Source: a virus (Duplodnaviria; Caudoviricetes). Taken from it: a stretch of DNA of 44,715 nucleotides. This document shows positions 6,509 to 27,694 of the stretch, one piece after another. The stretch covers positions 1 through 44,715 of IMG/VR virus record IMGVR_UViG_3300023263_000004; one strand, written 5' to 3'. Within the stretch, counting starts at the first letter, position 1. Each line of letters starts with the position of its first letter. The translations under genes were made by a program, and so were the position numbers. The notes under the pieces were generated by a model that was not told the DNA's origin, did not search any database, and was given only the letters and a program-made list of their open reading frames with translations.

Positions 6509-7732
6509 ATGAACGAGCAAAGCGAAGAGCTGAAAAAGCAGGTCAAGGAAATCCTTGACGCGATGAAGAAGCGCGACGACGAAAACGCCGCCGTGCTCAA
6601 GAAGACCGCTGAGGACGTGGCCGCGTTCGGCAAGATCCAGGAGGGCACCAAAGATGCGGTCGCCGCCATAAACGCCGAGGGGCAAAAGCTCCAAGGCCGC
6701 ATGCTGGAGGTCGAGCAAAAGCTGGCCGAGCTGAAGACTAATCCGGGCCCGGTGAAGGATGTCACGCTGGGCGAGAAGGTGGTGACCGATCCGAAGTTCA
6801 AGGAGTTCGCCGCGCTCGCAAAGTCGAAGGGCAACCACTCCCAGCGCTTCGAGCTGAAGTCCTACGGGCTGAAGCAAATCACCAGTATCGACAGCAGCGG
6901 CGGGGCGGGTATCTGGTCCACGCGACTGCCGGGCGTGATCGAGGAACCCCTGCGACCCCTGTCGATTCGCGACCTGCTGGACCAGGGCTCCACGGATTCC
7001 AACCTGATCGAGTGGGTGCGCGAGAACGTGTACACCAACGAAGCGGACGTGGTGAGCGAGGGCGCGCTGAAGCCCGAGTCCAACATCACCTACGAACGGT
7101 TGGACGTGCCGGTCCGCACGATCGCGCACTGGATCCGCGCGTCGAAACAGGTTCTGGCGGACTTCAAGCAACTGCAAACGATGATCAACGGGCGCATGCG
7201 CTGGGGTCTGCGGATCAAGGAAGAGGACGAGATCCTGTACGGCGACGGCACCGGCGAACATCTGCTGGGACTGATCCCGCAGGCGACCGACTACAACACG
7301 ACGCTGAATCGCACCGGCGACACGTTCATTGACGTGATCCGCCACGCGATTCTGCAGGTTCGGTTGGCGTTCTATCCGGCGTCCGGCATCGTGGTCAGTC
7401 CGACCGACTGGCATAACATCGAGCTGACCAAGGACAACGAAAACCGGTACCTGATGGCGTCCCCGCAGGGTCGCATTCCGGCGATGTTGTGGGGTCTGCC
7501 GGTGGTTGAGTCGGACGGCATGGCGACTTCGGGCGAGTTCCTGGTGGGCGCGTTCCGGCTGGCCGCCACCCTGTTCGATCGCGAAGAAGCCGCAATCCTC
7601 CTGAGCACCGAGGACCGCGACAACTTCATCCGCAACTTGGTCACCATCCTTGCCGAAGAGCGGCTGGCGCTGGCGGTTACGCGTCCGCGCGCGTTCGTGC
7701 ACGGGTCGTTCCCGAGCGGTTCGACGACCTGA
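6509..7732 (+). CDS. major capsid protein, HK97 fold with delta domain
   Basis: Coiled-coil N-terminus, EGALKPES, ILYGDGTG, LWGLPVV, NLVTILAEERLAL. Confidence 0.95.
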   Translation: MNEQSEELKKQVKEILDAMKKRDDENAAVLKKTAEDVAAFGKIQEGTKDAVAAINAEGQKLQGRMLEVEQKLAELKTNPGPVKDVTLGEKVVTDPKFKEFAALAKSKGNHSQRFELKSYGLKQITSIDSSGGAGIWSTRLPGVIEEPLRPLSIRDLLDQGSTDSNLIEWVRENVYTNEADVVSEGALKPESNITYERLDVPVRTIAHWIRASKQVLADFKQLQTMINGRMRWGLRIKEEDEILYGDGTGEHLLGLIPQATDYNTTLNRTGDTFIDVIRHAILQVRLAFYPASGIVVSPTDWHNIELTKDNENRYLMASPQGRIPAMLWGLPVVESDGMATSGEFLVGAFRLAATLFDREEAAILLSTEDRDNFIRNLVTILAEERLALAVTRPRAFVHGSFPSGSTT

Positions 7733-7778
7733 GTCTGAGTGCTCCGCGCGCTGCGACGCGCTGGGCTATTGGGCGACG

Positions 7779-7815
7779 AAAGGGCCGGCGTGCTAACGTG
7801 CGCCGGCCCTTTTTA
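7779..7815 (+). terminator. rho-independent terminator after the capsid gene
   Basis: Stem AAAGGGCCGGCG / CGCCGGCCCTTT running into a T-tract. Confidence 0.8.
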
Positions 7816-7841
7816 ATTCCACCGCGGAGGGGGACGTTCAC

Positions 7842-8267
7842 ATGTGGGTCCGAGCATTAAAAACCTTCAAGGGTCGGTACGGATCGATCAAAGCCGGCGA
7901 GAAGTTCAACGCCGAACCCGGGTACGTCACATCGCTGAACAAGCGCAAGGGCAACCCGCTGGTCGAGGTGCTGGACGAGCGGGACGAGCCGGGCCCAACG
8001 AAAGACCGGAACAAGGGCGACGCGCCGGGACGGGCGGGAAAAGTGAATCCCGGCGACCAGGGCCAGGCGCCGGCGAGCGATACGGGCCAAGTGCCGGCCG
8101 CTGGGAAGGCGCTCACGTCGCAATCATTGCCAGCGGTCCCAGCCTCACGAAAGAAGACTGCCGCGCCGTTGCAGCGTGGCGGGCGCAGGGGGAAGCCGAC
8201 CCCGCGCAAGGGCAAGGCGAAGCCGGCAACAAAAACCTCGAGTACTCCCGCGCACCCCGACGCGTAA
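7842..8267 (+). CDS. small post-capsid protein (frame-0 product of a probable frameshifted gene)
   Basis: GGAGG RBS at 7826-7830 and ATG at 7842. Globular N-terminus MWVRALKTFKGRYGSIKAGEKF followed by a low-complexity P/A/K tail. Confidence 0.75.
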   Translation: MWVRALKTFKGRYGSIKAGEKFNAEPGYVTSLNKRKGNPLVEVLDERDEPGPTKDRNKGDAPGRAGKVNPGDQGQAPASDTGQVPAAGKALTSQSLPAVPASRKKTAAPLQRGGRRGKPTPRKGKAKPATKTSSTPAHPDA

Positions 8268-8839
8268 TCGTCATCAACACCAGCTACCTGCTGGCGCCGT
8301 GGGCGGACGTCCTGTACGCGTGCGACGAAACGTGGTGGCTGAAGTACTACCCGCTGGTGGCGACGAGCTTCCGCGGGGAATGCTGGACGATCAGCGCCGG
8401 CGCCCGTGATCGGTTCGGGCTGTTCTGGATCTATGGCCAGGACTACGGCGGCTTGAGTCCCGCGCGCGACTACATCCACACGGGGAAGAACAGCGGGTTC
8501 CAGGCGATCAGCTTGGCGCACCTGTTCGGCGCTTCGCGCATCATCCTGGTCGGGTTCGACATGATGGCCACGGGTGGCCGGGCCCATTGGCACGGCAATC
8601 ACCCGCCCGGGCTGGCCAACGGGGGCGAGGGGCGGTACGCGGCGTGGCGCCGGGCGATGGAGCATCTCGCACTCGACATAAAGCGGACGAACTGCAAAGT
8701 CTTGAACGCCAGCCGACGGACTGCGCTAAAGTGTTTCCAGCGCGTCACGCTAGAAACCGCACTCCATGAAAACCAAGATCCTGTCGGAGCTGGAGACGAT
8801 CGCCGCTTGTCACAACCGGAGCCTTGCGCGGTTCGGTGA
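8042..8839 (+). CDS. Maf/DUF115-like putative glycosyltransferase domain, probably reached by a -1 frameshift from the 7842 ORF
   Basis: VAIIASGPSL, VIVINTSY...DVLYACD..WW, GKNSGFQAISLA..FGASRIILVGFDM. No in-frame start near the domain; slippery G GGA AAA at 8036-8042. Confidence 0.75.
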   Translation, partial: SESRRPGPGAGERYGPSAGRWEGAHVAIIASGPSLTKEDCRAVAAWRAQGEADPAQGQGEAGNKNLEYSRAPRRVIVINTSYLLAPWADVLYACDETWWLKYYPLVATSFRGECWTISAGARDRFGLFWIYGQDYGGLSPARDYIHTGKNSGFQAISLAHLFGASRIILVGFDMMATGGRAHWHGNHPPGLANGGEGRYAAWRRAMEHLALDIKRTNCKVLNASRRTALKCFQRVTLETALHENQDPVGAGDDRRLSQPEPCAVR

Positions 8840-9899
8840 CGGGGAATTGCGGCTCGCGATTGGTGGCGCATGCAGCAGCCAGCGGGCCGACAAGAAGCTG
8901 GCCACGGAGCTTCGGCGGCTGCTGGTCGAGCCATGCGACACGCTGGTGGGCATCCCAAACTTCGCCCAGACGCCGAACCGTGCGACCTGGGACCGGTACG
9001 CCGCGCACCCCTACGACAAGTTTTACAAGCTCCCCCTCTACGGCAGCGCGTTCATCACGCGGCCGGACAACGCCCCGTGGATCGACACGCCGGACTACTG
9101 GGACGCCGTCCGCGGGCTGTGGGCGGGCAAGCTGGTAACGCTGGTGCTGGGCGATCGGAAGAGCCTCACGCCGGAAATGATCGCGGAGGGGGAGACGGGC
9201 GGGACGGTGAAGCGGGTGATCGATGCGGCACGGACGCACGCTTTCCAGGACATAGACGCCCTACAGGAAGAGATCGGCACCGAGCCTGGGCTTGTGCTCA
9301 TGTGCGTGGGCGCCACGGCCACGGCCCTTGCGCGGCGTCTGGACGACAAAGGCGTGCACGCCCTGGACCTGGGCCACATCGGGATGTTCATGCGGCACGC
9401 CGGCGCCTACGCGTTCAAGCCGGATGACCTCGCGACCAAGGGCCACCGCGCGAGCATGCAGCGGATCCGCTGGGAAGCGCATCCGCACGCGGACACGATC
9501 GGGGCCGAGGTCTTCGCGTTCGCCATGTGGGAACTAGAGGCCCGGACCGTTCTGGACTACGGCTGCGGTACGGGCTGGCTTGAGCACAACATCCACGCGG
9601 GCGGGGCGCCGGGCATGCGGGTCACGAACTACGACATCACGCCCGGGCGCGATGCCATGCCCAAGCCGGCCGACCTGGTGGCCGGCCTCGACGTGCTGAA
9701 CTGGGTAGAGGAGCCGAAGCGGTGGGCCGTTCTGTCGCACATGTGCGCGTTGGCGAAAAAGGGCGTGTACCTGTCCCAGCCGGACCCGGCCGGCGAGATT
9801 GCCGCCGATGTGCAGACCAAGGTGCGCGAGCTGAAGCACTGGCGCGCGCGGATCAACAGCAGCGAAGACGGGGTGACGACTGCATGGCTGACCAAGTAA
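8766..9899 (+). CDS. GT-D fold (DUF1792-like) glycosyltransferase fused to a class I SAM methyltransferase
   Basis: SLARFGDGEL, YGSAFITRP, CVGATATALA and ALDLGH (GT-D), then TVLDYGCGTG. Confidence 0.85.
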   Translation: MKTKILSELETIAACHNRSLARFGDGELRLAIGGACSSQRADKKLATELRRLLVEPCDTLVGIPNFAQTPNRATWDRYAAHPYDKFYKLPLYGSAFITRPDNAPWIDTPDYWDAVRGLWAGKLVTLVLGDRKSLTPEMIAEGETGGTVKRVIDAARTHAFQDIDALQEEIGTEPGLVLMCVGATATALARRLDDKGVHALDLGHIGMFMRHAGAYAFKPDDLATKGHRASMQRIRWEAHPHADTIGAEVFAFAMWELEARTVLDYGCGTGWLEHNIHAGGAPGMRVTNYDITPGRDAMPKPADLVAGLDVLNWVEEPKRWAVLSHMCALAKKGVYLSQPDPAGEIAADVQTKVRELKHWRARINSSEDGVTTAWLTK

Positions 9900-10489
9900 G
9901 CCGGGACGCCGAGATCCTGAAGTACGTCGCGGCCTATCACCGGCCGCGGTATCACATGGGGAACGAGCGGCGCGAGAACAGCACGAAGGCGATCGACGAG
10001 TGGGGGTTCGGGCGCGGCTATCGCACCTTCCTGGACGTGGGCGCCGGCCGCGGCGAGATCCTGAACTTCGTGCAGGACAGCGGGGAGTTCCCCGAGGTCG
10101 TAGGCACCGAGGTCGTGCCGGAACTGATCCAGGCGGACGCGCGGCTTCGCTACGCTGAAGCGCACGCGCTCGACATGCCGGACCGTTCGGTGGACGTGGT
10201 CACGTGCTTCGATGTGCTCGAGCATCTTCTGCCGGCCGACGTAAACCCGGCCGTCGACCACCTGTTTCGCATCGCGCGTTGCGTGGTCATCATCAGCGCC
10301 GCGGAGGATTCCCAGTTCCAGGAGGGCGTCGAGCACCATCCGAGCCGGCGCCCGATCGCGAACTGGCGCGCGTTGCTGCACGCCCGGGCCCTGCCGTACA
10401 AGTTTAAGTTCGCCGCCGCGCGACCCTGCCGAAAGGGGTCCGAGCTGTGGATCTTCACCGGCAAGAAAGCGAAGGCGGACGCGCGATGA
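9884..10489 (+). CDS. class I SAM-dependent methyltransferase
   Basis: ATG at 9884; FLDVGAGRGE and DVVTCFDVLEHL. Confidence 0.88.
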   Translation: MADQVSRDAEILKYVAAYHRPRYHMGNERRENSTKAIDEWGFGRGYRTFLDVGAGRGEILNFVQDSGEFPEVVGTEVVPELIQADARLRYAEAHALDMPDRSVDVVTCFDVLEHLLPADVNPAVDHLFRIARCVVIISAAEDSQFQEGVEHHPSRRPIANWRALLHARALPYKFKFAAARPCRKGSELWIFTGKKAKADAR

Positions 10490-10977
10490 AGCAAACGCGG
10501 ATGAGTGTGCTGGCCGGCTTGATTCGCAAGAATGGATGGACCCGGGGCGTCGAGCTGGGCGTGTGGGAGGGCGCGCTGTTCGGCTATCTGCTGGCCGCGT
10601 TCCCCGATCTGCATCTGACGGGCGTGGACCGGTGGCTGGCGATCGGTGATTACGCCGGCAAGGACATGGCCAGCGCCGAAGCGAAGGCGCGGAAGATCCT
10701 CGCAGCGCACCCGGGCCGCGCGCAGCTCCTGAAGGAAGACACGGTGGTGGCGTCGCTGGGCATCCCCGACGAGTCGCTGGACTTCGTCTTCATCGATGCG
10801 AGCCACGACGCCGAGAGCGTCACGGCGGACATTCGCGCATGGTTTCCCAGGGTCCGAAGCGGCGGGGCATTGACTGGCCACGATGCCAACTGGCCGTCGG
10901 TGCAAGCCGCGCTCGATGAACAGCTTCCAGGGTGGCAACTGTTGGGGGGGAATGTATGGATCTACACCTGCGCGTAG
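10486..10977 (+). CDS. SAM-dependent methyltransferase (Methyltransf_24-like)
   Basis: ATGA overlap; GVELGVWEG, LDFVFIDASH, GGALTGHD. Confidence 0.88.
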   Translation: MKQTRMSVLAGLIRKNGWTRGVELGVWEGALFGYLLAAFPDLHLTGVDRWLAIGDYAGKDMASAEAKARKILAAHPGRAQLLKEDTVVASLGIPDESLDFVFIDASHDAESVTADIRAWFPRVRSGGALTGHDANWPSVQAALDEQLPGWQLLGGNVWIYTCA

Positions 10978-11618
10978 AGGACGAGCACTTCGAATACCTG
11001 CGGCTGCAGAAAGGCGCGCTCGACGAAGAGAGCGACGACCGAGAGGTGTGGCACGAGCTGTACGAGATCTCGCTGGCCGAACAGTTCGACAGCATCAAGC
11101 CGTTCCTGCCGGCGAAGTGCTGGGGCTTGCTCGACATTGGCAGCGGGCTGGGCGGGATCGACGTGCTGATCGGGCGGCACTACGCCGCGCAGCACCGCGG
11201 GCCCCGAAGTGGCTGGCCGTTCGTGCATCTGTTGGACGGAGTGGACGACAAGCCGGAAATGATCCTGCACAGGCAGACGTACAACAGCATGCGGGTGGCC
11301 AAGGATTTCCAGGTCAAGAACGGGATGCCGTCGGACCGTTTTTGCTACTACGGCACGCGCGAACAGCTCTATGTGAAGCCGTTCGACCTGGTCATGAGCT
11401 TCGGGTCCTGGTGCTTCCACTACGAGCCGGCCGTGTACCTGTCGAAGTTGATCAGCGGCGGCGGGCTGCACGAAGACTCGGTCGTCATCGTGGACGTGCG
11501 GGCCACCAAGCCGGAATGGATCGAGCAATTAGACCAGGCGCTGCGACGCGAGGCGGTCATCACAACAAAGCCGAAGTGGCACCGCATCGTGTATGGCATC
11601 CGTCCCCGCACCCGTTGA
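10956..11618 (+). CDS. putative class I SAM-dependent methyltransferase
   Basis: ATG at 10956; LLDIGSGLGGID and FDLVMSFGSWCFHY. Confidence 0.78.
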   Translation: MDLHLRVEDEHFEYLRLQKGALDEESDDREVWHELYEISLAEQFDSIKPFLPAKCWGLLDIGSGLGGIDVLIGRHYAAQHRGPRSGWPFVHLLDGVDDKPEMILHRQTYNSMRVAKDFQVKNGMPSDRFCYYGTREQLYVKPFDLVMSFGSWCFHYEPAVYLSKLISGGGLHEDSVVIVDVRATKPEWIEQLDQALRREAVITTKPKWHRIVYGIRPRTR

Positions 11619-12237
11619 CGTAACAATCATCGGCGGCGGTTGGTCGGTTCTGAACCTTCCCCTGGACGTGCTGTGCGGGCGCGTGATCGCCGTGAACGAT
11701 TCGGCGATTCACGCGCCACGCTGGGACGTTGCGGTATCAATGGACCGGCTGTGGACTGAGCATCGGTTGCACGAGGTCGTGATTCGCAGCGCCGAAACCG
11801 AGCCGCGGCGCGAGATATGGCTGCGCCGATCGGCGGTCCAGAACCTCAAGGTCGACGGCTGGCCCTGGGTGCACGTGTTCGAGTGCGACCACAAGACAAA
11901 TGCATTCAGCACGAAGCCCGGGACGCTCAACGGGACAAACTCAGGCGCGTGCGCGCTCAACCTCGCGTGGCAGATGCGGCCGGCGCGGGTCTTCCTGCTG
12001 GGCTTCGACATGTGCCGATCGCCCGATGGCCGGGCGTACTGGTACCCGCCGTACACCTGGGCGAACGTGAAAGGCGGGACCGGCAACGGCACCTACGGCG
12101 AGTGGGCCAAGCAATTCGCGGGCGCGCGGTCCGCTTTCCAGCGCATCGGCACCAAGGTCTTCAACGTCTCGCCGGCGTCGGCGATCGAGGACTTCCCCAA
12201 AATGACGCCGGCGCAATACGTGAGGGAGTGCCGGTGA
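11593..12237 (+). CDS. second Maf/DUF115-like putative glycosyltransferase
   Basis: IIGGGWS, VIAVNDS, VSMDRLW, GTNSGACALNLA, VFLLGFDM; same motif order as the 8042-8839 domain. Confidence 0.75.
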   Translation: MASVPAPVDVTIIGGGWSVLNLPLDVLCGRVIAVNDSAIHAPRWDVAVSMDRLWTEHRLHEVVIRSAETEPRREIWLRRSAVQNLKVDGWPWVHVFECDHKTNAFSTKPGTLNGTNSGACALNLAWQMRPARVFLLGFDMCRSPDGRAYWYPPYTWANVKGGTGNGTYGEWAKQFAGARSAFQRIGTKVFNVSPASAIEDFPKMTPAQYVRECR

Positions 12238-12962
12238 CACCGTTTACGCTGGTGATGGCCTATTACGACAACCCCGACATGTTCGGCACTCAGTTGCTGC
12301 ACTGTGCGGCGTTGCCGGTTGAGATGCGGAAGGCGTTGACGGTCATCGTTGTGGACGATGGCAGTCCGACGTGGCCGGCGCTGGAAGCTATCGATCGAAT
12401 CGAGGACCGCTTCGACGTATGCCGCTTCGACCTGCAAATCTGGCGGATGCAATGCGACGTGCGCTGGAATCAGGACGCATGCCGCAACGTCGGAGTGCGC
12501 GAGGCCCGGACCCAATGGGTGCTGCTGACCGACATGGACCACGTCGTCCCGCGTGCAACCTGGGAACGGCTGATGGGCGAGAAGCTGAACAAGCACACCG
12601 TGTACCGCTTCGGCCGCGTGTCTGCACCGAACATGGAGCCATACAAGCCGCACCCGAATTCGTGGGCGATGACTGCCAAGAAGTACTGGCAGATCGGCGG
12701 GTATGACGAGGCGCTGGCCGGCAACTACGGCACCGACGGGGACTTCCTCACGCGCGCGCGCGCAGTCGCGGGAGAGCCGATCGAACTACCAGAGGCGCTG
12801 GTGCGCTATCCGCGCGAGGTCGTCCCGGATGCGAGCACGACGACGCTGGAGCGCAAAAGCCTCGAGGACAAGGTCCGCATATCGAACATCATCAAGGCAC
12901 GCAAGGCGCACCCCGACTGGCGGCCGCTGCACTTCAATTTCCCGTGTGAGCGCGTTCTATGA
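12234..12962 (+). CDS. GT-A fold glycosyltransferase (GT2/GT7-like)
   Basis: GTG at 12234; VIVVDDGS, CRNVG, VLLTDMDH (DxD), IGGYDE...YGTDGDF. Confidence 0.85.
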   Translation: MTPFTLVMAYYDNPDMFGTQLLHCAALPVEMRKALTVIVVDDGSPTWPALEAIDRIEDRFDVCRFDLQIWRMQCDVRWNQDACRNVGVREARTQWVLLTDMDHVVPRATWERLMGEKLNKHTVYRFGRVSAPNMEPYKPHPNSWAMTAKKYWQIGGYDEALAGNYGTDGDFLTRARAVAGEPIELPEALVRYPREVVPDASTTTLERKSLEDKVRISNIIKARKAHPDWRPLHFNFPCERVL

Positions 12963-13666
12963 TGGACTTCGTCACGTTCAAGTGGCGGCCGGCGCCGGGC
13001 TATCGATCGAAGTTCGAGGCGGCGACGGTCAACACCCTCTACAGCATGCTGGGCCGCAACTACCACGCCCCGTTCCGGCTCACCTGCGTCACGGATGACA
13101 CGAAGGGAATCAGCAGCGAGGTCCGCACCGTGGACCTGTGGGACGACTGGTCGAGATTGCCCAGCCCGCACGGCGCCAACTACCCGAGCTGCTACCGACG
13201 GCTGAAGCTGTTCAGCGACGAGGCCGCGGAAATCATCGGGCCCAGGTTCGTGTGCATGGATCTCGACCTCGTCATCCTGGGCGACGTGACGGCGATGTTT
13301 GCCGAGGACGTGGACTTCCGCATCTGGGGCGACACGGCCAAGGGCACGCCCTACAACGGAAGCCTCTGGATGCTGCGAGCTGGCGCGCGGCGGCAAGTGT
13401 GGGACGAGTTCGACCCGGTCGAGTCACCGCGGAAGTCGCTGGCGTTCGGCTACATCGGCAGCGACCAGGGATGGATCGGCGCATGCCTGGGACCGAACGA
13501 GCGGAAGTGGTCCACGCGCGATGGTGTATATTCTTTCCGCAATCACATCCAGCGCAACCGCTACCAGTTGCCGGCAAATGCGCGGGTCGTGATCTTTCAC
13601 GGCGCGGTCGATCCCTGGGGAGAGCACGCGCAGCGGTTAAGCTGGGTCCGCAAGCACTATCGGTGA
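12959..13666 (+). CDS. GT-A fold glycosyltransferase (GT8-like)
   Basis: LTCVTDD, RLKLF, CMDLDLVI (DxD), YNGSLW, GSDQGWI, VIFHG..DPW. Confidence 0.82.
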   Translation: MMDFVTFKWRPAPGYRSKFEAATVNTLYSMLGRNYHAPFRLTCVTDDTKGISSEVRTVDLWDDWSRLPSPHGANYPSCYRRLKLFSDEAAEIIGPRFVCMDLDLVILGDVTAMFAEDVDFRIWGDTAKGTPYNGSLWMLRAGARRQVWDEFDPVESPRKSLAFGYIGSDQGWIGACLGPNERKWSTRDGVYSFRNHIQRNRYQLPANARVVIFHGAVDPWGEHAQRLSWVRKHYR

Positions 13667-13669
13667 GCC

Positions 13670-13978
13670 ATGTACGTAACCGTGGACGAGGCCAAGGAGT
13701 ACGTCGGGATCTACCACGCCGAAAAGGACGGCCAGCTTGCGTTCATGATCGAGGCGGCCGAACGGCACGCCCAAAACTTCATCGGCCACGACCTGCGCTG
13801 TAGCACGGTCCCCAGCGAAAACAGCCCCCCGGATCTCGACGCCGAGCTGTTGCCGAACATCAAGGTGTTCGTGCTGGAACAGGTCGCGCGCTGGATCAAA
13901 GACCCGGGCGGGGACCACAAGGCCAGCGACGACTTGCTTCAGATGCTGCACTTCGAGCGCACTGGGCTGGGCGTGTGA
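13670..13978 (+). CDS. head-tail connector (gp6-like)
   Basis: MYVTVDEAKEYV...IEAAE..AQNFIG; position after the head genes. Confidence 0.8.
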   Translation: MYVTVDEAKEYVGIYHAEKDGQLAFMIEAAERHAQNFIGHDLRCSTVPSENSPPDLDAELLPNIKVFVLEQVARWIKDPGGDHKASDDLLQMLHFERTGLGV

Positions 13979-15773: not shown

Positions 15774-16111
15774 GCCGATGGAAGTATCCGGTCGAGAAAG
15801 TCACCGTTGGCGAGAACAGCCAAAACGTCCGCAAGCTCACGTCCGGTGAGCGTCGCGATTTCATCGCCACTTCGAAGAAGATCGGAACCGGCGAGATGCA
15901 ACCCGCCGACCTACCGTTTTTCGTGTGCAAGATGGCCTGTGTTGATCCACCGCTGACCGATGAAGACGCCGTCGCGATGCCACCCGAGCTGATGGACGCG
16001 TGCGTAAACAAAATCATGACGCTGAGTGGCATGCGGACGCCGGCGCTTGATACCACGGGGGAAGCCGACGAAAAAAAAGCCCCCGGCGATTCCTCACCCC
16101 CGACGAGCTGA
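15770..16111 (+). CDS. tail assembly chaperone (gpG-like)
   Basis: GTG at 15770, between tail tube and tape measure; A8 slippery run at 16071-16078. Confidence 0.8.
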   Translation: MSRWKYPVEKVTVGENSQNVRKLTSGERRDFIATSKKIGTGEMQPADLPFFVCKMACVDPPLTDEDAVAMPPELMDACVNKIMTLSGMRTPALDTTGEADEKKAPGDSSPPTS

Positions 16112-16486: not shown

Positions 16487-18727
16487 GTGGATCTGGCCAA
16501 ACTGTTAGTTCGCCTCGAGCTGCAATCGGCGCAGATGCTGAAAGAGCTGGAGCGGGCGAATTCCAGCATCACGAAGTTCGCGAACAGCACGCAAAACAAG
16601 CTGCAGAAGTGGGCCGCCCAGATCGGCACATTCTTCACGGCGCGCGCGATCTTCAACTTCAGCAAAGACGTCATAAAGGCCGAGGCGGACCTGGTAAACA
16701 TGGCCGCGCAGGCCGGCACGTCCGTGGAGGAATTCTCCCGGCTGGGCTACGCCGCGTCGCAATCTGGTTCGAATATCGAGGGCATGGACGCCGCGCTGAA
16801 GGGGCTCGCCAATTCAGCAGCCGATGCGCAAAAGGGGTCGAAGACCGCAAAGGCGGCATTCGATGCGATCGGGATCAGCGCGGAGGGGGCTGACGGTGCG
16901 CTGAAAGACACGGCGCAACTGCTGGTCGAGATCGCGGACAAGTTCTCCCAGTATGAGGACGGGGCGGCGAAATCGGCGCTGGCGCAGGAAATTTTCGGCA
17001 AGACCGGGCGTGAGTTGATCCCGCTGTTGAACAAAGGCGCCGCGGGCATCGCGGAGCTGACGGCCCGGGCGGACGAACTGGGCATCACGGTGAGCACGAA
17101 AACCGCGCAGGCTACCAACGACTTGACCGACCAGTTGGCGACCCTGGGAGCTGTTACCCGCGGCGTTGTAGGCAAGGCGCTGGCCGAAGTTGTGCCCCTG
17201 CTGGGTGACTTTGCGAAATCGGCGATCGATGCGCAGGCTGCGGGCGAAGGCTTGGGCCGATTCTCAGAACAAATCGCAGCCGGGTTCAAGCTGGTCGTCG
17301 ATATCGGGTACAGCGTCTACAAGACGTTCGACGATATAGGCACGGCGCTGGGGGCTCTGGGCGCCGCTGCTGTGCAGTTCGCAAAGGGCAACTTCGCCGA
17401 AGCCCGCAACATCATGCAGCAGGCGAACGAGGACCAGATCCAGTCCGAGAAGCGGGCGAACGAGTTCCTGGAGAAGCTGTGGGCGGACACGGGCAAAGAC
17501 ATCGTCAAAACGGTGCAGAAGACCGACGACGAGATGAAAAAAACCCTGGTGTTCGGGGACCAGGTCGAAAGCGACGCGATCAAGAACGCGGTGAAGGCGC
17601 TGACTCAATTCCGCGATTCCCTGCGCGAACAGGCGGTCGAGCTTGACGAGAGCGGCGCAGCGGCCACGCGTTACCGGCTGGAGGTCGGGAACCTTGCCGA
17701 CGAGGTGAAGCGCGCGGGCGCGGCCGGGCAGACGCTGAAGTTGGAGATCATCGCCGCGGCCGATGCCAAGCAGCAGAAGGAAGATCTGAAGGAAATCACG
17801 GCCGGGCTGATGGACGTGAACGCGCAGATCCTGGAACTACAGGGGAAGCAGGCCGAGGGCGCGGTGATCAAGTTCGACAAGGAGAACCTCGAACTGGTGA
17901 AGACGCTACGGCGCGAGGGCAACGAAGCCGGGCTGGCCCAGATTGCCACCTTGCGCGGACTGATCGAGGCGCAGGCCAAGTTCAACGAACTGGAGAAGGA
18001 AGCCAAGGTCGTCAAGGATGAGCTGGCGGCGCAGGAAGAGCGGCTGGGGAATTCGCGCGAAGCTGGCGCCATTACAGAGCTGCAACTGTTGCAGGACCTG
18101 GACGCCGCACGCAGCAACGCGGCCACGCAACTGGGAGCAATCGCCGACAAGCAAAAGGAGATCGCCGAAAACTCAGGGTCCGACACGATGGTGCAGCAGG
18201 CGAAGAACGCCGCGCGCGAGGTCGAAAACCTGAGGGCACAGACTGACCTGCTGGAGAAGAAAATCCGGTCGACGTTCGAGGATGCCTTCGCCGATGCCTT
18301 TGAAGGACTGGTCACTGGCGCGAAGTCCGCGGAAGAAGCGATCGGCGACTTCCTGCAGAACATTGCCGCGATGCTCTTGCAGATCGCCGCGCAGAACATC
18401 GCCCAGTCGTTTTTCAAGACTGATACCGGTTCGTCCATCGTGAGCGGCATTGCCGGCTTGTTCGGCGGCGGCGCCAGCGGCGGCGGCCGGGCAATGGAAG
18501 GCGCTGTCAATCCTGGGGTGGCGTACAACGTGGGCGAGAACGGACCGGAGCGGTTCGTTCCGAATGTTGCCGGGCGCATCGAGGACCAGCGGCGCTGGGG
18601 CGGGTCGCGGAATAATATTTACGTGACGGTCGAGGCTCCGAAGGGCACCGTCTCGCGGCAAACTCAACTGCAGACCGGGTCCACGATCGCCAAGCAGATC
18701 GGCCACGCGAACAGGCGGAACAACTGA
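16487..18727 (+). CDS. tape measure protein
   Basis: 746 aa, Ala-rich helical; MDLAKLLVRL start, IFGKTGRELIPLLN, YNVGENGPERF. Confidence 0.92.
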   Translation: MDLAKLLVRLELQSAQMLKELERANSSITKFANSTQNKLQKWAAQIGTFFTARAIFNFSKDVIKAEADLVNMAAQAGTSVEEFSRLGYAASQSGSNIEGMDAALKGLANSAADAQKGSKTAKAAFDAIGISAEGADGALKDTAQLLVEIADKFSQYEDGAAKSALAQEIFGKTGRELIPLLNKGAAGIAELTARADELGITVSTKTAQATNDLTDQLATLGAVTRGVVGKALAEVVPLLGDFAKSAIDAQAAGEGLGRFSEQIAAGFKLVVDIGYSVYKTFDDIGTALGALGAAAVQFAKGNFAEARNIMQQANEDQIQSEKRANEFLEKLWADTGKDIVKTVQKTDDEMKKTLVFGDQVESDAIKNAVKALTQFRDSLREQAVELDESGAAATRYRLEVGNLADEVKRAGAAGQTLKLEIIAAADAKQQKEDLKEITAGLMDVNAQILELQGKQAEGAVIKFDKENLELVKTLRREGNEAGLAQIATLRGLIEAQAKFNELEKEAKVVKDELAAQEERLGNSREAGAITELQLLQDLDAARSNAATQLGAIADKQKEIAENSGSDTMVQQAKNAAREVENLRAQTDLLEKKIRSTFEDAFADAFEGLVTGAKSAEEAIGDFLQNIAAMLLQIAAQNIAQSFFKTDTGSSIVSGIAGLFGGGASGGGRAMEGAVNPGVAYNVGENGPERFVPNVAGRIEDQRRWGGSRNNIYVTVEAPKGTVSRQTQLQTGSTIAKQIGHANRRNN

Positions 18728-19362
18728 TGTTTTTGGAGACGCCCCGCTTTCCCGCATGCCCGAGCTTCGGCTACACGAGCACGCCGCAATACTCGGTGAC
18801 CATCTCCGAGGCGGTGAGCGGCAAGGAATGGCGCAACCGCAACTGGTCCCGCCCCCGCTTCCGCTTCGACTGCACGGTTGGCCCGCGCGCGGAGGATGAG
18901 ATCCAGGAATTAACGGAGTTCTGGCACGCCCTGGGCGGGCCCGAGGTCGGCTTCCGGTTTCAGGACCTGACCGACTACAAGTCGTGCTTCGTGGGCGACA
19001 CGCCGACGCGCACCGATCAACTGCTAGAAATCACAGTCGACAGCCCGGGTGGGTATCAGCTTTCGAAGGCGTACAGCGCGGGCGTGCGCACGCAATTGCG
19101 CCCGATCTACAAGCCGGTCCAGGGAACGATCCTGCTTGCCGACAACGGCGTGGCGAAGACGGAGGGGGCGCAGTGGCAGTTGGACTATGCCACCGGGATC
19201 GTGACGCTATCCTTCAGCCCCGTCGGTCCGCTCACCTGGGGTGGCGAGTTCGATGTACCGGTGCGCTTCGATTCGGAGTTCCCCGTCGAGATCCAGAACA
19301 AGAAAATTCACTCGGTAGCCTTCGCCCTGAAAGAGCTGCGCGACCCGGTGGACGAGGACTAG
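18727..19362 (+). CDS. distal tail protein, DUF2460 (GTA-like)
   Basis: SGKEWRN, GFRFQDLTDY, GGEFDVPVRFD. Confidence 0.88.
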   Translation: MFLETPRFPACPSFGYTSTPQYSVTISEAVSGKEWRNRNWSRPRFRFDCTVGPRAEDEIQELTEFWHALGGPEVGFRFQDLTDYKSCFVGDTPTRTDQLLEITVDSPGGYQLSKAYSAGVRTQLRPIYKPVQGTILLADNGVAKTEGAQWQLDYATGIVTLSFSPVGPLTWGGEFDVPVRFDSEFPVEIQNKKIHSVAFALKELRDPVDED

Positions 19363-19367
19363 CGCGC

Positions 19368-20261
19368 GTGTTGATCCTTCCAACGGCGGCCCAGGAACAT
19401 CTTGCCCGACAGAATCGCAGGCTCACGGTCTGCGGGCTGATCGAGAAGAACGACGGCACCGCGATCTACTGCACGCAGCACGACGAGGACATCGAGGTCG
19501 ACGGCGGGGACCTGGACGGGTTCTACCTTTCGAACGTGGCCGTCAGTGCGTCCGATATCAAAAGCGGATCGGACATGTCGGTGGACAACCTGGAGATCAG
19601 CAGCCACACGACGGACGACATCCTGAACTTCGGGGGCTTCAGCTTTGCCGACATCGAGGCCGGGCTGTTCGCGAACGCCCCGTTTCAAACGTTCATCTGC
19701 CAATGGGACAACCCGACCGCATGGCAAAAGATCGTCCGCCGCGGCTACCTGGGCGAGATCAAGCGCACGGCCGAGGGGCAGTTCCAGGCCGAGTGGCGAG
19801 GCCTATTCCAGCCGCTGCAACAGATGGTCGGGCGGACCCTGTCCGAACGCTGCGACGTGAAACGCTTCGGCGACCTGCGCTGCAAGCTGGATGTGGATGC
19901 GCTGGAGATCGCCGGCACGGTCGTGGATGTAACGGGCGATCGACAGTTCGAGATCGAGCTGGACACGCCGCCCCCGGACTTCCCCGAGTACTTCACGCTG
20001 GGCGAGGCGACGTGGCTCACCGGGCTCAATAGCGGCTACACGCGGCAGCAGATCAAGCGCGACATCGGGATCACTGGGAGCAACGTCATCCAGCTTTGGG
20101 AGTCGATGCCGCATGCCATTGAGGTGGGCGACCGTGTAAGACTACGCCCGGGGTGCGACCGCATCTTCGAAACTTGCAGGGACCGATGGAACAACGCGGT
20201 AAATCATCGGGGACACGGCCGGCTGATCCCGGGCATTCCGGCAATCATTCGGGCGCCATAG
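19368..20261 (+). CDS. baseplate hub, DUF2163/BR0599 (GTA-like)
   Basis: GTG at 19368; TQHDED, SVDNLE, C...FGD.RC, PGCDRIFETC..WNNAVN. Confidence 0.88.
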   Translation: MLILPTAAQEHLARQNRRLTVCGLIEKNDGTAIYCTQHDEDIEVDGGDLDGFYLSNVAVSASDIKSGSDMSVDNLEISSHTTDDILNFGGFSFADIEAGLFANAPFQTFICQWDNPTAWQKIVRRGYLGEIKRTAEGQFQAEWRGLFQPLQQMVGRTLSERCDVKRFGDLRCKLDVDALEIAGTVVDVTGDRQFEIELDTPPPDFPEYFTLGEATWLTGLNSGYTRQQIKRDIGITGSNVIQLWESMPHAIEVGDRVRLRPGCDRIFETCRDRWNNAVNHRGHGRLIPGIPAIIRAP

Positions 20262-20671
20262 CCGCGGCCGCTGTTGTCGCCAAAGCGCGGGAGCTGCTGG
20301 GCGCCCCGTATCTGCATCAAGGCCGAACCCCGAAGGGGATTGATTGCGTGGGCGTCCCGATCTGGGTTATGCGCGAACTGGGCGTGTTCCCGCCTGAGCT
20401 TCAGGCCACGAACTACGGGCGCCTTTCCAACGGTGAGCTGATCGCCGCGTGTCAACGCTTCTGCGCGCCGCTGGCGGGCGATGAACCGGGATGCCTGGTC
20501 GTGATCCGCTGGCCAGGCGAACGCGAGGCCGGGCACGTGGCGATCCGCACCGACCTGGGCATCCTGCACGCGTACAAGAACCAGGGCGGCGTCCGTGAGC
20601 ACGGCTACCGGGCGAAGTGGCCGCAATGGACGGACAGCTTCTGGCGACTGCCGGGGGTGAATGGTGGGTAG
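20258..20671 (+). CDS. NlpC/P60 tail-associated peptidase (start uncertain)
   Basis: ARELLGAPYLHQGR..GIDCVG and GHVAI...LHA catalytic Cys/His pattern. Confidence 0.85.
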   Translation: MAAAAVVAKARELLGAPYLHQGRTPKGIDCVGVPIWVMRELGVFPPELQATNYGRLSNGELIAACQRFCAPLAGDEPGCLVVIRWPGEREAGHVAIRTDLGILHAYKNQGGVREHGYRAKWPQWTDSFWRLPGVNGG

Positions 20672-23600
20672 ATATGGGCAGGCCATTCTCACGATCGCCG
20701 GGACGATCGTGGGGGCGTACTTCGGGTACCCGGCATTAGGCGCAGCCCTGGGCAGTCTTGCGGGGAGCTTGCTGTTCCCGACGCAACTGCCGACCGTGAG
20801 CGGGCCCCGGCTCGCGGACCTTACGCAGACCACATCCGCCGTCGGCACCAGCATCCCCCGCGGCTGGGGAACCTTCTCCTGTGCGGGCGCCGTGATCTAC
20901 AAGAGCGACCTGCGCGAAGTGATCGTAAGCGAGGACGTGGGCGGCAAGGGCGGCGCGGAGCAAACCGTGGAGACGCCGACGTACTACCAGGACTTCGCGG
21001 TGGGATTGGTCGAGGGCGAGGACCCGATCGCATTGCTCGAGCCAATTGCAGGCGTGCGCCGCATCTGGTCAAACGGCAAGTGCATCTACGATCGGCGGCC
21101 GCGCGAGACGGGCGAGAGCGAGGCGGACTTCAACAGTCGCATCGCTGCGAGCAACGTTCTCGATACGCAGATGGTGATTTACCTTGGGACCGAGGACCAG
21201 GAACCCGACCCGACGATAGAGGCTGATCCCAACGTGGGCATGGGCAACGCCAGCGGCTACCGCGGCTACGCCTACGTGGTGTTCATCAACTGGCAGAACC
21301 TTCCCGAAGACGGCAACAAGATGCCGCTGAATTGGAAGTTCGAGGTGTACACGGCCGGCGCGCTCGACCCGACCACGGCGTTCGAGTATTCCAACGAATA
21401 CATACCGCCCTGGAATGCAGCGGCCGAGATCCCGATCTTCGGGTCCAGCGACTACTACAACTTCACGGTGCGGGCGACGGGCTGGACCTATGGCAGCGGC
21501 CGTTCGCGCGTGAGCGGATCGTGGTCCACGTTGCAGCAGGCGATGAACGCGGCGGAAGTGGTGGCGCTGCGCCAGGCCAACAACTTCATGGGGTACAGCA
21601 TCCTGCCCAATAGCGGCAGCACCGCGGCGCGTGGGGTGCTGAACACGGCGCCCGGGGAAGAGTACCGATCGGTCGCTTACGACCCGGCATCCATCACGCT
21701 CCACTTCAACGCGATCAAGACGACCAAGTTCGGCCGCAGCGGCAATTCGTGGTCGGCGCTGGCAGCGAAGGGCATGGCGCCGGGCATCCCCTTGCACACC
21801 AACGGCTACATTCTGAACAGCGACATCAGCAACCCTGCGTCGGCTGGCGTGTATCAATGGTGGCCTGGGGACTATTCGTCGGCTGCGTCCTATCGTTCGG
21901 CATCCCCGCTGATCGATCACGCCATAAGCACGGGCCGCTCTTCGAACCCGGGCGCCGTGCTAATCACGGGCGACCTGATGATCTACGTCACCCGCAAGAG
22001 GCAACCCCCTAGCGACCAGTGCGCCGTCACCTTGCCCCAGCTTCCGGGCTACTGCATCAGCACGCGCGGCAATCTGGTGCGGCAGCGGTCGTGGACGAAG
22101 ATCGAGGTCAGCTTCGTCAACCTCGCGCGCGCGCTATCGAACCGAACCACGCACCTGGTCCAATTGCCGGGACAGCCGGCCAGTCATCAAGTGACCGCGA
22201 TTCGCACGTATCCATTGAACCCGCTGCTGCCGGCTGGGCATCCCGACTACAACAACCAAACATTCTGGGAGGCCGCCTACAATCAAGCCGTGGCGCAAGG
22301 GTTGCTGCCGGCTGGCTGGACCTATGACGTGGAATACCCGCGCACCCGGAGCACGTACTACCGGCGCCAGCTCGCGCAAGACACGATCGAAACTTTCCCC
22401 GTGCCCCTGGATCAAGTGGTCGGGGACCTCATGCGCGAGTCCGGCTACGTGGCCGAGGACTACGACGTAACCGCGCTGGAGGAAAAGACCGTCCTGGGCT
22501 ACGTGCGCACGCGCGTGATGGCCGGGCGCGCGGCAATCGAACCGTTGCGGCAGGCCAAGTTCTTCGATGGGGTCGAGTCGAACGGAAAAATAAAATTCGT
22601 GCTGCGCGGCGGCGCGATCGTGGGCGAAATCACTGCGGACGACCTGGGGGTCACGGTGGCCGGCGAGGATGCCCCCAGCCGGCTGACGACCACGACGGCT
22701 GACGAAACCACACTGCCGCGCACGGTGCGGGTGCATTACTTGGCGGTGTCGCGGGACTACGAGCCGGGCGAACAGATCAGCCCAGCACGCAGCGAAACCC
22801 GGGCCACCAATGACGTCGACGTCGAACTGCCAATGGTGCTCGAGGACGACGAGGCGGCGCAGATTGCCGAAGTGTTGTGGGCGGAAGCCTGGACCGCACG
22901 TCGCACGCATTCGGCGGTCATCGATGCCGGCCGGCAAGAACTGGAGCCGACCGACCCGATCGAGATCCCGGTGGACGGGCGGGTGCGGCGGGTCCGTATC
23001 CTATCGATCGAGGATGCGTTGCCGGCGCTGCGCCGATTGGAGCTGGTGCGCGACGACGACGGCAGCTACGTAAGCCGGGCGGTCGGCACGGTCCCAGGGT
23101 ACGTGCGGCCCACGCTTCAGGTCGCAAGCCCTGCCGAGTTGCTGTTGCTCGACCTGCCGGCGCTGCGCGATGAGGACGACAACGCGGGCGTGTATGCGGC
23201 CGTGCGTCCTTACCTGACCGACACGACGTTTCGAGGCGCTTCGATCCTGCGCAGCACGGATGGCGGCGGCAGTTACACCTCCCTGGGTCCGGTGAGCACG
23301 GCCACGCCGATGGGCTATTTGTTGCAGACGCCGGGAGCAACCGAGCCGCACACGATCTGGGACGAAGTCACGGTGCTGCGCGTGCAGATGCAATACGGCG
23401 AATTGGAAAGCCGGACCGAGTCCGCCGTCCTGGGCGGGGCCAATGCGGCGGCGATCGGTGCGCATGGTCGGTGGGAGATCGTGCAGTTCAGGGACGCCAG
23501 TTACTTGGGCGAGGGCATCTGGCTGTTGAGCGGGCTTTTGCGCGGGCGCCGCGGCACGGAACACAACATCGGGATCAGTGTTGCGAATGATCGGTTCGTG

Positions 23601-26129: not shown

Positions 26130-26135
26130 CGCAGC

Positions 26136-26960
26136 ATGACCACGCCTTTCCTTGGAATGGATGAACTCGAAGCGGCCCAGGCCCAACCCGAGATCACAGT
26201 CAACGAAGCCCTGCGCACGCTCGAGGCCGCGATATCGATCGACGTGTTGGACAAGGACCTCACGACGCCCCCGGCATCCCCGCCGAGCACCGCGCGCTAT
26301 CTGGTCCCGGCCTTGGGTGCAACCGGGGCGTGGGCGACGATGGCCAATAAGATCGCGTTCTTGCTGGGCACGGTCTGGACCGCACTCACGCCGCGGCTTG
26401 GCTGGACCGTGTATGTAGTGGACGAGGCCAAACGCTACGAGTGGGACGGGGCAGATTGGGTGGAGTTCGCCGGGGGCGGTTCCATCGCGATCAGCGGCCC
26501 CGATGAGTCGCCCCCGGTGAGCGTTGCCACGGTGACGTCGCTTGAATTTGTGAACGCTGTGGTCGAGGACTTGGGCGGCGGGGCGGTCCGCGTCACATCG
26601 TTGGGAAGCGATACCCTACCCGAGCTGGACCTCGGTATGTTCTTCCCCGGCATTCCAGCATCGAACCAGTTGATGTTTAAATTCGTCGCGGCGCGGGCGC
26701 TGGAATTACCGGCCAACTTCGCGGGAAGTTATGGGCACATCGGCACGAATCCGACCAGTTCGTTCGTAATGATTGTGAGCGTTGCCGGCGCCAACGTGGG
26801 GACGATCACGGTGAGCACTGGGGGTGTCTTCACCTTCGCAACGACGGCGGGCGCGGTCATACCGGTCGATCCAGGCGAACGCATTGAGATCGCCGGCCCA
26901 GCCAGTGCGGACGGGACCGCGGCAGATATCGCGGCGACGCTATTGGCTGGGGTTCTGTGA
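26136..26960 (+). CDS. DUF2793-containing tail/fibre protein
   Basis: AQAQPEITVNEALRTLE, YLVP..ATGAW, PRLGW.VYV.DE. Confidence 0.82.
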   Translation: MTTPFLGMDELEAAQAQPEITVNEALRTLEAAISIDVLDKDLTTPPASPPSTARYLVPALGATGAWATMANKIAFLLGTVWTALTPRLGWTVYVVDEAKRYEWDGADWVEFAGGGSIAISGPDESPPVSVATVTSLEFVNAVVEDLGGGAVRVTSLGSDTLPELDLGMFFPGIPASNQLMFKFVAARALELPANFAGSYGHIGTNPTSSFVMIVSVAGANVGTITVSTGGVFTFATTAGAVIPVDPGERIEIAGPASADGTAADIAATLLAGVL

Positions 26961-27694
26961 GCGACAAGCACTTCGCATCGGTTCAGCTTCTGTGCGGCTT
27001 CAACGGCGCCGACGCGGCTACTGCATTTACGGACGAAAGCACCGCGGCCCGTGTGGCAACGTTCGTCGGCAACGCGCAACTGGACACGGCCCAAGCCAAG
27101 TGGGGATCGGCTTCGCTGCTGGTGGACGGCACGGGCGACTGGGTTACGTTTCCAGATGCCGCGGCGTTCACGCTGGGAACGTCCGACTTCACGCTTGAGT
27201 GTTGGGTGCGCGCCGCCGCGCTTGGCGCGTCATTGCGTGGAATTTTCGGGCAGTGGGAAGCGGGCGGCAATCAGCGCGGGTCCGGGATTTTCTACAACGG
27301 CACGTCGAATCAGATCGAGTTCTTCTACTCGACCACGGGAGCGAATAGCGCGAGCTTCACCGGAGCCTATACGCTGGCGCTCAATACGTGGGCGCACTTC
27401 GCCGTCACCAGATCGGGCGCAGACCTGCGCCTTTTCGCCGATGGAGTTCAGTGTGGGACGACGGGGAATATCGGTGCTTCTTCGATCTTCAACAGCACGG
27501 CGACGATGAAAGTCGGGCTGGTGAGTGCGGCGGGGACGCCTTGGAATGGCTGGATCGATGATGCGAGATTCACCGTCGGCGTTGCGCGTTACGTTGCGAA
27601 CTTCCGGCCCCCGCGTGGGCCATTCGATCGGCGCAAGAATCTCGGGGTGCTGGGCGGCTATCGGCAACCGATTGTGGCGGCGACGAGCCTCTAA
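26957..27694 (+). CDS. LamG/concanavalin A-like lectin domain protein (putative receptor-binding)
   Basis: DFTLECWV, WAHFAVTRSG, LFADG, WNGWIDDARFT.GVARY. Confidence 0.88.
   Translation: MSDKHFASVQLLCGFNGADAATAFTDESTAARVATFVGNAQLDTAQAKWGSASLLVDGTGDWVTFPDAAAFTLGTSDFTLECWVRAAALGASLRGIFGQWEAGGNQRGSGIFYNGTSNQIEFFYSTTGANSASFTGAYTLALNTWAHFAVTRSGADLRLFADGVQCGTTGNIGASSIFNSTATMKVGLVSAAGTPWNGWIDDARFTVGVARYVANFRPPRGPFDRRKNLGVLGGYRQPIVAATSL

Follow-up and report, generated by a model that had tools for sequence, protein, structure and literature searches.

Tail chaperone and capsid genes of phages are already known to contain frameshifts. In lambda-like phages the tail assembly chaperone G/GT uses a -1 frameshift, and frameshifted extensions of capsid or tail proteins have been described in T7/T3, Lactobacillus A2 and Listeria A118/A500/PSA (PMC5009743, in extract). 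Lambda gpFI bridges capsid and terminase (PMC13595911, in extract), Maf enzymes transfer nonulosonic acids to flagellin (PMC13317340, in extract), and glycosyltransferases of the mycobacteriophages Che8, Corndog and Myrna are reported to coat the capsid (Freeman et al. 2023, as cited in an extract of PMC12363180). The gene pair analysed here combines a small gene with an enzyme in its -1 frame, and for its predicted shift no published account came up in a search of main texts, mostly from outside the subscription journals. Among phage cases, the extracted main text of PMC3711429 names the tail chaperone cluster only.

The window, by which we mean the whole 44.7 kb stretch of DNA, is that of an HK97-type tailed phage with the gene order terminase, portal, protease, major capsid protein, transferase block, head-tail connector (13670) and tail genes. 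The small gene and the enzyme, followed by seven transferase genes, sit between the capsid gene and the connector (Table 1). Elsewhere, a ParB-like domain fused to an N6/N4 DNA methyltransferase lies right before the terminase genes (638-2272), and the tail tip genes (18727-27694) encode DUF2460, a phiJL001 gp84-like hub, an Rcc01698-like C-terminal domain, DUF2793 and a laminin-G fibre.

Table 1 Features of the window from the capsid gene to the head-tail connector.
Feature	Coordinates	Strand	Evidence
Major capsid protein, HK97 type	6509..7732	+	PF05065 E=2e-52; phrog_10 E=2e-71
Terminator-like hairpin with U run, 3' of capsid gene	7778..7816	+	16-pair, fold of 7733-7850, z=-3.9
Shine-Dalgarno-like run GGAGGGGG ahead of ATG 7842	7826..7833	+	duplex -11.2 kcal/mol with anti-SD motif
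0-frame ORF, 141 aa: folded N-domain (residues 1-48) and Pro/Ala/Lys/Arg-rich low-complexity tail	7842..8267	+	
N-domain, predicted L9-N / GINS-B / lambda gpFI C-terminal fold, DUF7210/DUF7302-like	7842..7985	+	
Slippery heptamer G GGA AAA, in phase for -1 shift	8036..8042	+	
6-bp stem with 12-nt loop, starting 7 nt past heptamer; possible stimulator	8050..8073	+	
-1 frame part, 265 aa: short linker, then enzyme domain from ~8093	8042..8839	+	phrog_4603 E=5.6e-49
GT-D-fold glycosyltransferase fused to methyltransferase domain	8766..9899	+	PF08759 E=2e-17; PF13489
Methyltransferase, start ATG 9884 by eye	9884..10489	+	PF08241 E=7e-10
Methyltransferase, Methyltransf_24	10486..10977	+	PF13578 E=1.5e-16
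Likely class I methyltransferase fold	10956..11618	+	Atlas look-alikes are methyltransferases, score 0.94-0.97; no Pfam or PHROG match
Stand-alone paralogue of the frameshifted enzyme, own ATG	11593..12237	+	phrog_4603 E=1e-18; enzyme profile match
GT2 glycosyltransferase	12234..12962	+	PF00535 E=2e-8
Glycosyltransferase, last gene before connector	12959..13666	+	phrog_1962 E=6e-14
Head-tail connector	13670-13978		PF05135

Slip site and reading frames in the window

The first-pass annotation had proposed a programmed -1 frameshift that fuses the small protein to the enzyme, and its description of the locus was borne out by the sequence: the enzyme lies in the -1 frame, overlaps the 141-aa ORF and has no nearby start, the heptamer is in phase, and the stem CCGGCG (8050-8055) / CGCCGG (8068-8073) is present at the distance given. 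A computed -1 slip at the heptamer gave the predicted fusion of 67 + 265 = 332 aa, and its translation reproduced the expected junction ...RAGK-SESR.... The -1 part carries the enzyme motifs GRW..IIASGPSL, YACD..WW, GxNSGxQA, GFD, HWHGxHP and NASRxTAL. Close relatives of the 141-aa ORF over its full length are P0163-P0165 and P0167. At its other end, the enzyme frame extends 74 nt into the following gene (8766-8839), and a similar C-terminal run occurs in the closest homologues, P0001, P0002, P0004 and P0005. The hairpin behind the capsid gene is predicted to lower expression of the genes that follow, and it is absent from the list given by a terminator scan of the window. For the duplex of the Shine-Dalgarno-like run we presumed the anti-SD motif.

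Upstream of the first enzyme motif, the sole ATG, GTG or TTG in the enzyme frame is GTG 7844, about 270 nt away, which lies inside the ATG TGG that opens the small ORF and overlaps the ORF's own ATG. The -1 frame is open from 7817, and leak initiation at GTG 7844 is possible in the window phage because the strong Shine-Dalgarno run of the small ORF also precedes this codon. Against this route, 8 of 12 close relatives are start-less in the enzyme frame before the heptamer, and L226, which also begins ATG TGG, has a stop 105 nt before its heptamer.

Substitution patterns bear on the same question. Over 7986-8042, the relatives L090, L092 and L224 differed from the window at 12, 12 and 11 of 19 third positions of the 0 frame and at 2-5 of the other positions (L089 and L226 were uninformative here), whereas over 8268-8764 substitutions favoured third positions of the -1 frame in all five relatives, with 76-84 of 166 on these positions versus 32-45 elsewhere in four of them. 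No coding selection on the -1 frame was seen before the heptamer. Wobble variation thus changes frame at the heptamer, indicating that the -1 frame is read only after it, and initiation at GTG 7844 was rejected as the source of the enzyme on the grounds that the route is closed or absent in most relatives and the frame unselected before the slip site.

An assembly indel was likewise rejected. The independent assembly X1, possibly the source of the window, is identical to it, and relatives in X2 and X4 extend across the heptamer, with no gap listed for 7842-8219, so that these contigs show no frame-changing indel at the slip site; no RNA holder of the site was listed. Taken together, an enzyme made from GTG 7844 or another start, or a frame change due to an assembly error or a pseudogene, is extremely improbable. 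The combination of heptamer and frame switch is beyond chance. From the sequence, the enzyme is very likely made solely through a -1 slip inside the small neighbouring gene, and we regard the predicted -1 frameshift fusion in the window phage as close to certain.

Layout and slip signals in related loci

The enzyme belongs to the D3 Orf7 / P1 PmgO family (phrog_4603). In tblastn its identity was 40% with D3 and 32% with P1, and it turned up in 76 named phage records, including D3, PAJU2, P1 and P7. A single-protein search of viral contigs returned no enzyme relatives; an alignment-based search did recover relatives. The survey pool comprised 7 annotated loci, 215 searched loci and the window, and because the searched loci were the best 80 of 574, the best 80 of 119 and 55 of 55 matches to the window's enzyme, shares in the survey are not population frequencies. 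After the window's own copy, 5 loci ending before the motif and 18 duplicates were dropped, 199 loci remained: 110 with a -1 overlap, 5 in-frame fusions and 84 others. A -1 overlap was assigned where a long ORF, in the +1 frame as seen from the enzyme, spans the enzyme's first motif; the N-domain profile matched in 87 of these loci and not in 23. Four of the in-frame fusions were assigned by profile and L021 by eye, and L184, L192 and L197 were reassigned by eye to the last class as shadow frames. Lineages, taken as clusters at 70% identity, numbered 68 for the overlap class (66 after two open-ended ones were removed) and 71 for the last class.

A strict heptamer in phase for the shift was found in 41 of 66 overlap lineages, with 7 and 5 in the other two phases, and the same scan of the last class gave 6, 4 and 3 of 71 by phase. 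Synonymous recoding of the 0 frame led to an expectation of 4.6 +/- 2.0 in-phase heptamers versus those 41, and outside the usable region of the same ORF heptamers occurred in 2 of 61 cases downstream and 5 of 45 upstream. G GGA AAA was the most frequent (11/66 lineages). Among the 25 lineages with no strict heptamer, 24 had an in-phase shift-prone tetramer versus 11 and 10 out of phase, the tetramer classes being taken from the E. coli ranking in PMC4066793 (in extract); according to that extract, V_VV.A_AA.R is one of the heptamer classes that shift most efficiently in E. coli when a stimulator is present, whereas earlier work had found G_GG.A_AA.A inefficient. An ATG within 75 nt of the enzyme motif was present in 0 of 66 overlap lineages versus 40 of 71 others.

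The same layout was recognized by eye in D3, a cultured phage, and in Psp6 and S20, with the slip sites C CCA AAG, T TTT TTG and C CCT TTG; their GenBank records annotate no frameshift, and D3 is split as orf6.5/orf7. Conservation of the heptamer and frame switch in homologues, which the first-pass annotation had put forward as a check, was therefore observed, and by sequence comparison the predicted layout is retained across dozens of distant phage lineages with interchangeable slip sites.

The slip sites of a few lineages (A AAA AAA in 6/66, T TTT TTG in 2/66) would also suit transcriptional rather than ribosomal slippage as the cause of the frame change. Polymerase slippage should be independent of reading phase. 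The phase-locking of the motifs argues against it, as does the fact that most sites are mixed runs such as G GGA AAA and C CCT TTG, and we consider this explanation very improbable. None of the three outcomes that the first-pass annotation had named against its own reading (initiation at GTG 7844, an unconserved heptamer or an indel) occurred.

A possible stimulator was sought in the RNA downstream. Alone, this region of the window was unremarkable (z = -0.12 to -0.99 in four folds), and 8043-8110 has another, long hairpin as its minimum-energy fold; among the gene's 35-nt windows, the hairpin 8050-8073 falls within the best 7%. In 8 close relatives the 6-bp stem was paired in 83% of 48 cells versus 25-58% when slid; no compensatory changes were found among them, and the hairpin is one pair short in L089, the closest relative. 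Across 42 heptamer loci the 45 nt downstream had a mean z of -0.77 versus -0.10 at a control 150 nt further on (p=0.009), and the upstream Shine-Dalgarno duplex had -4.5 versus -2.2 at a control unmatched for purine content. The stem that had been noted at first pass has at most modest comparative support as a possible stimulatory 3' hairpin, and structure in the window alone is not significant. The possible pseudoknot proposed with it did not hold up: the loop 8056-8067 can pair on paper with 8096-8104 (duplex -16.0 kcal/mol), but this pairing is unconserved: L090, L092 and L224 have other loop sequences, L089 has lost one pair (by eye), and the 3' arm encodes conserved G-R-W residues.

The surroundings of the small gene were surveyed in the same way. 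For 59 of 68 overlap lineages there was an upstream ORF to scan; it was the major capsid gene in 52, and in 7 of the 59 another gene sits between the capsid gene and the small ORF. In L030, L035, L068 and L160, the place of the capsid gene, directly upstream of the small ORF, is taken by phrog_5707 (function unassigned). Downstream, 34 of 54 overlap loci had a Pfam match of glycosyl- or methyltransferase type, in a scan to which 132 of 159 ORFs were submitted, and the connector follows directly in about 10, which suggests that the small gene and the enzyme form the constant core. Hosts of the related loci are mostly Pseudomonadota.

A capsid-anchored search gave 73 distinct loci, several of them repeating contigs of the first survey: 25 had the enzyme, 40 the N-domain without the enzyme within the DNA covered, and 8 neither. 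From this set, the small gene appears to be an ordinary post-capsid gene with the enzyme appended. Of 20 loci with both profile matches, 19 were in the -1 relation; L240, L250 and L270 were so by eye. The exception is L233 (7050-7400), where N-domain and enzyme stand in a +1 relation, possibly through an indel or a broken copy, and its sibling L238 is in the -1 relation.

The small domain, the enzyme and their predicted roles

The 141-aa ORF alone had no Pfam or PHROG match, and its tblastn matches in named phages (E=0.6) were set aside. Among 50 N-domain members, phrog_2616 matched 23, with weak matches to DUF7210, DUF7302 and FluMu_N in 2, 2 and 1. The N-domain model (pLDDT 87.7) has, by structure comparison, a fold common to ribosomal L9-N, the GINS B domains and the lambda gpFI C-terminal domain; against gpFI 2lsm it gave Z 4.8, rmsd 1.3 over 41 aligned residues and TM 0.64, and GINS and L9 domains tied with or outscored 2lsm. 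Profile search returned 3anw_B at E=0.005 and gpFI 2lsm at E=0.056. A gpFI-like fold is not proof of head binding, because this latter match is weak and GINS and L9 score as high or higher. In lambda, the gpFI gene comes after the capsid gene, and the C-terminal domain of gpFI reportedly binds the head. Fold and gene position together suggest that the N-domain probably binds the head, with the major capsid protein of the window as its likely partner; the head-associated small protein of the first-pass annotation thereby gains support from both, and its association with the head stays an inference. Resembling the gpFI class, the small protein need not persist in the mature virion. A search for longer N-domain-bearing proteins, in which 8000 candidates were scored, gave 59 proteins of 85-160 aa, none with a new passenger.

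The enzyme model (pLDDT 94.5) matched Maf 5mu5 best, with Z 16.3, rmsd 2.8, 178 aligned residues, 14% identity and a Foldseek E of 4.9e-5, followed by an MptE-type pyrophosphokinase (Z 11.2), Cst-I (Z 10.7) and SteA (Z 10.6), so that the neighbours include non-glycosyltransferases (the MptE-type enzyme and SteA). The label of phrog_4603 is alpha-2,3-sialyltransferase. On this modelled fold, the C-terminal Maf-like domain would likely add the first sugar to a head protein.

The enzyme occurs both with and without the small domain. In-frame N-domain-enzyme proteins were found at the 5 survey loci and in 13 of 120 database proteins; these fusions are scattered on the enzyme tree and keep the whole N-domain. 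To place the five fused loci, five changes are required on this tree, a quick one that has 60 of 141 inner branches open and shows scatter rather than any order of events. Of the closest database proteins, 37 of 39 lack the enzyme's first motif. In the last class (84 loci), a start in the enzyme frame is possible for 69 of 71 lineages, and P1 pmgO and PAJU2 ORF010 have their own starts away from the capsid gene, as does, in its position, the stand-alone homologue of phiNP. Tethering is thus not obligatory, because these lineages can start alone and the PAJU2 and P1 genes lie off the capsid gene. The P7 homologue is annotated 'head morphogenesis'.

Several loci depart from the common layout. 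Stand-alone homologues at L002:2480-3049 (PAJU2 ORF010) and in H43/H44 (Klebsiella jumbo phage) carry the annotation 'structural protein', a hint that virions can transport the enzyme. L073:2808-4582 is an in-frame N-domain-enzyme fusion behind a tail gene, not the capsid gene. At L082:3800-4010 the N-domain ORF and the enzyme are in a +1 relation, with CCG TTT CGC near the junction and a near ATG for the enzyme, so that the enzyme could arise either by a +1 shift or from its own start. In L016:4589-5434, L018:4589-5485, L023:4607-6019 and L047:4607-5503 the frameshifted enzyme extends by 270-470 further residues with no Pfam match, so that one shift would deliver two domains.

In the reading that we favour, a minority of ribosomes would slip -1 at G GGA AAA, helped a little by the 3' hairpin, to give a plain 141-residue protein and a predicted 332-residue adaptor-enzyme fusion. 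The N-domain would dock on the prohead as lambda gpFI does, the shift would set a low ratio of enzyme-bearing to plain copies, the Maf-like domain would prime a glycan on the head protein with the first sugar, and the neighbouring variable glycosyl- and methyltransferases would extend and methylate it. We lean moderately towards this whole reading, in which the fusion binds the prohead and primes the capsid; for capsid glycosylation as the purpose, which we infer from the locus, the case is evenly balanced.

The fusion could instead be real and head-tethered but act on the portal, the connector, a decoration protein or the small protein's own Ser/Thr-rich tail, or transfer a non-sugar group. 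Genes lying between the capsid gene and the connector, the seven lineages with a gene between the capsid gene and the small ORF, the pyrophosphokinases among the fold neighbours and the four methyltransferase-type domains in the window would all fit. We consider this unlikely, since a protein O-glycosyltransferase leads the fold matches by 5 Z units and since the cassette also holds GT-D, GT2 and another glycosyltransferase.

It is less likely still, and on the whole improbable, that the shift is a dosage device only, with the N-domain a passive leader and the enzyme acting on the host surface (flagellin, pilin or LPS, in superinfection exclusion) or on a small molecule. The in-frame fusions retain the whole N-domain at several separate places of the tree, the N-domain fold also occurs on a viral GT1 cluster in the Atlas (a lead only), and a late position in the head module generally suits exclusion functions poorly, all of which speak against it. 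What it has in its favour are the stand-alone homologues off the capsid genes in P1, phiNP and PAJU2, the action of the Maf enzymes on flagellin (PMC13317340, in extract), and P1 pmgO being non-essential (PMC10695390, a table row).

Comparison with known frameshifts and glycosylation systems

On the prohead-tethered, capsid-priming reading, the locus would represent a second widely conserved frameshift of tailed phages, placed in the head module, that turns a gpFI-like adaptor into a low-copy, capsid-tethered, Maf-like priming glycosyltransferase and leaves many heads sugar-coated. We put this general claim forward tentatively, as slightly more doubtful than not. If it is true, tailed phages hold a conserved recoding site that annotation has overlooked, as in the 37 of 39 closest proteins and D3 orf6.5/orf7; the long-unassigned D3 Orf7 / P1 PmgO family gains a function and a testable target; and a frameshift doses and delivers an enzyme instead of a structural part. 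Virion glycosylation would then be found in phages of Pseudomonadota as well as in mycobacteriophages, sugar-coated heads would be common to many HK97-type phages of proteobacteria, D3 included, and the interchangeable downstream glycosyl- and methyltransferases would set the glycan type.

The arrangement resembles G/GT in that a small assembly protein would gain a C-terminal part by a -1 shift in a minority of copies, with the layout kept and the slip sequence variable. It differs in lying in the head module, between the capsid and connector genes and not between the major tail and tape measure genes, in involving proteins unrelated to G/T, in adding an enzyme fold, and in having natural in-frame fusions and stand-alone enzymes in the family. 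The window has a separate G/GT site of its own between the major tail and tape measure genes (A AAA AAA, 16072-16078), past which the -1 frame is open for about 140 codons. With the extensions of T7/T3, A2 and A118/A500/PSA it would share a shift by which the head receives an additional domain in few copies, and in-frame versions in relatives; in those phages the extension, mostly of Ig-like domains, is on the major capsid or tail protein itself, whereas here a transferase would extend a small gene of its own.

The likeness to lambda gpFI lies in the predicted fold and in the position right after the capsid gene; the window's domain differs in being N-terminal with a low-complexity tail, and the sequence link is weak. 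With Maf, the enzyme shares the fold of the catalytic-type domain, as it does with the Campylobacter sialyltransferases Cst-I/Cst-II (Cst-I in the comparison above), but it comprises this domain only (about 200 residues of Maf's 632) and is encoded in a phage head module. The multi-domain build of Maf with its flagellin-binding parts and the flagellar locus are absent here, and the small N-domain would replace the acceptor-binding parts. In mycobacteriophages, too, phage-encoded glycosyltransferases are reported to coat the capsid; the extract of PMC12363180 mentions no frameshift or tethering domain for them, and the related loci found here belong mostly to phages of Pseudomonadota.
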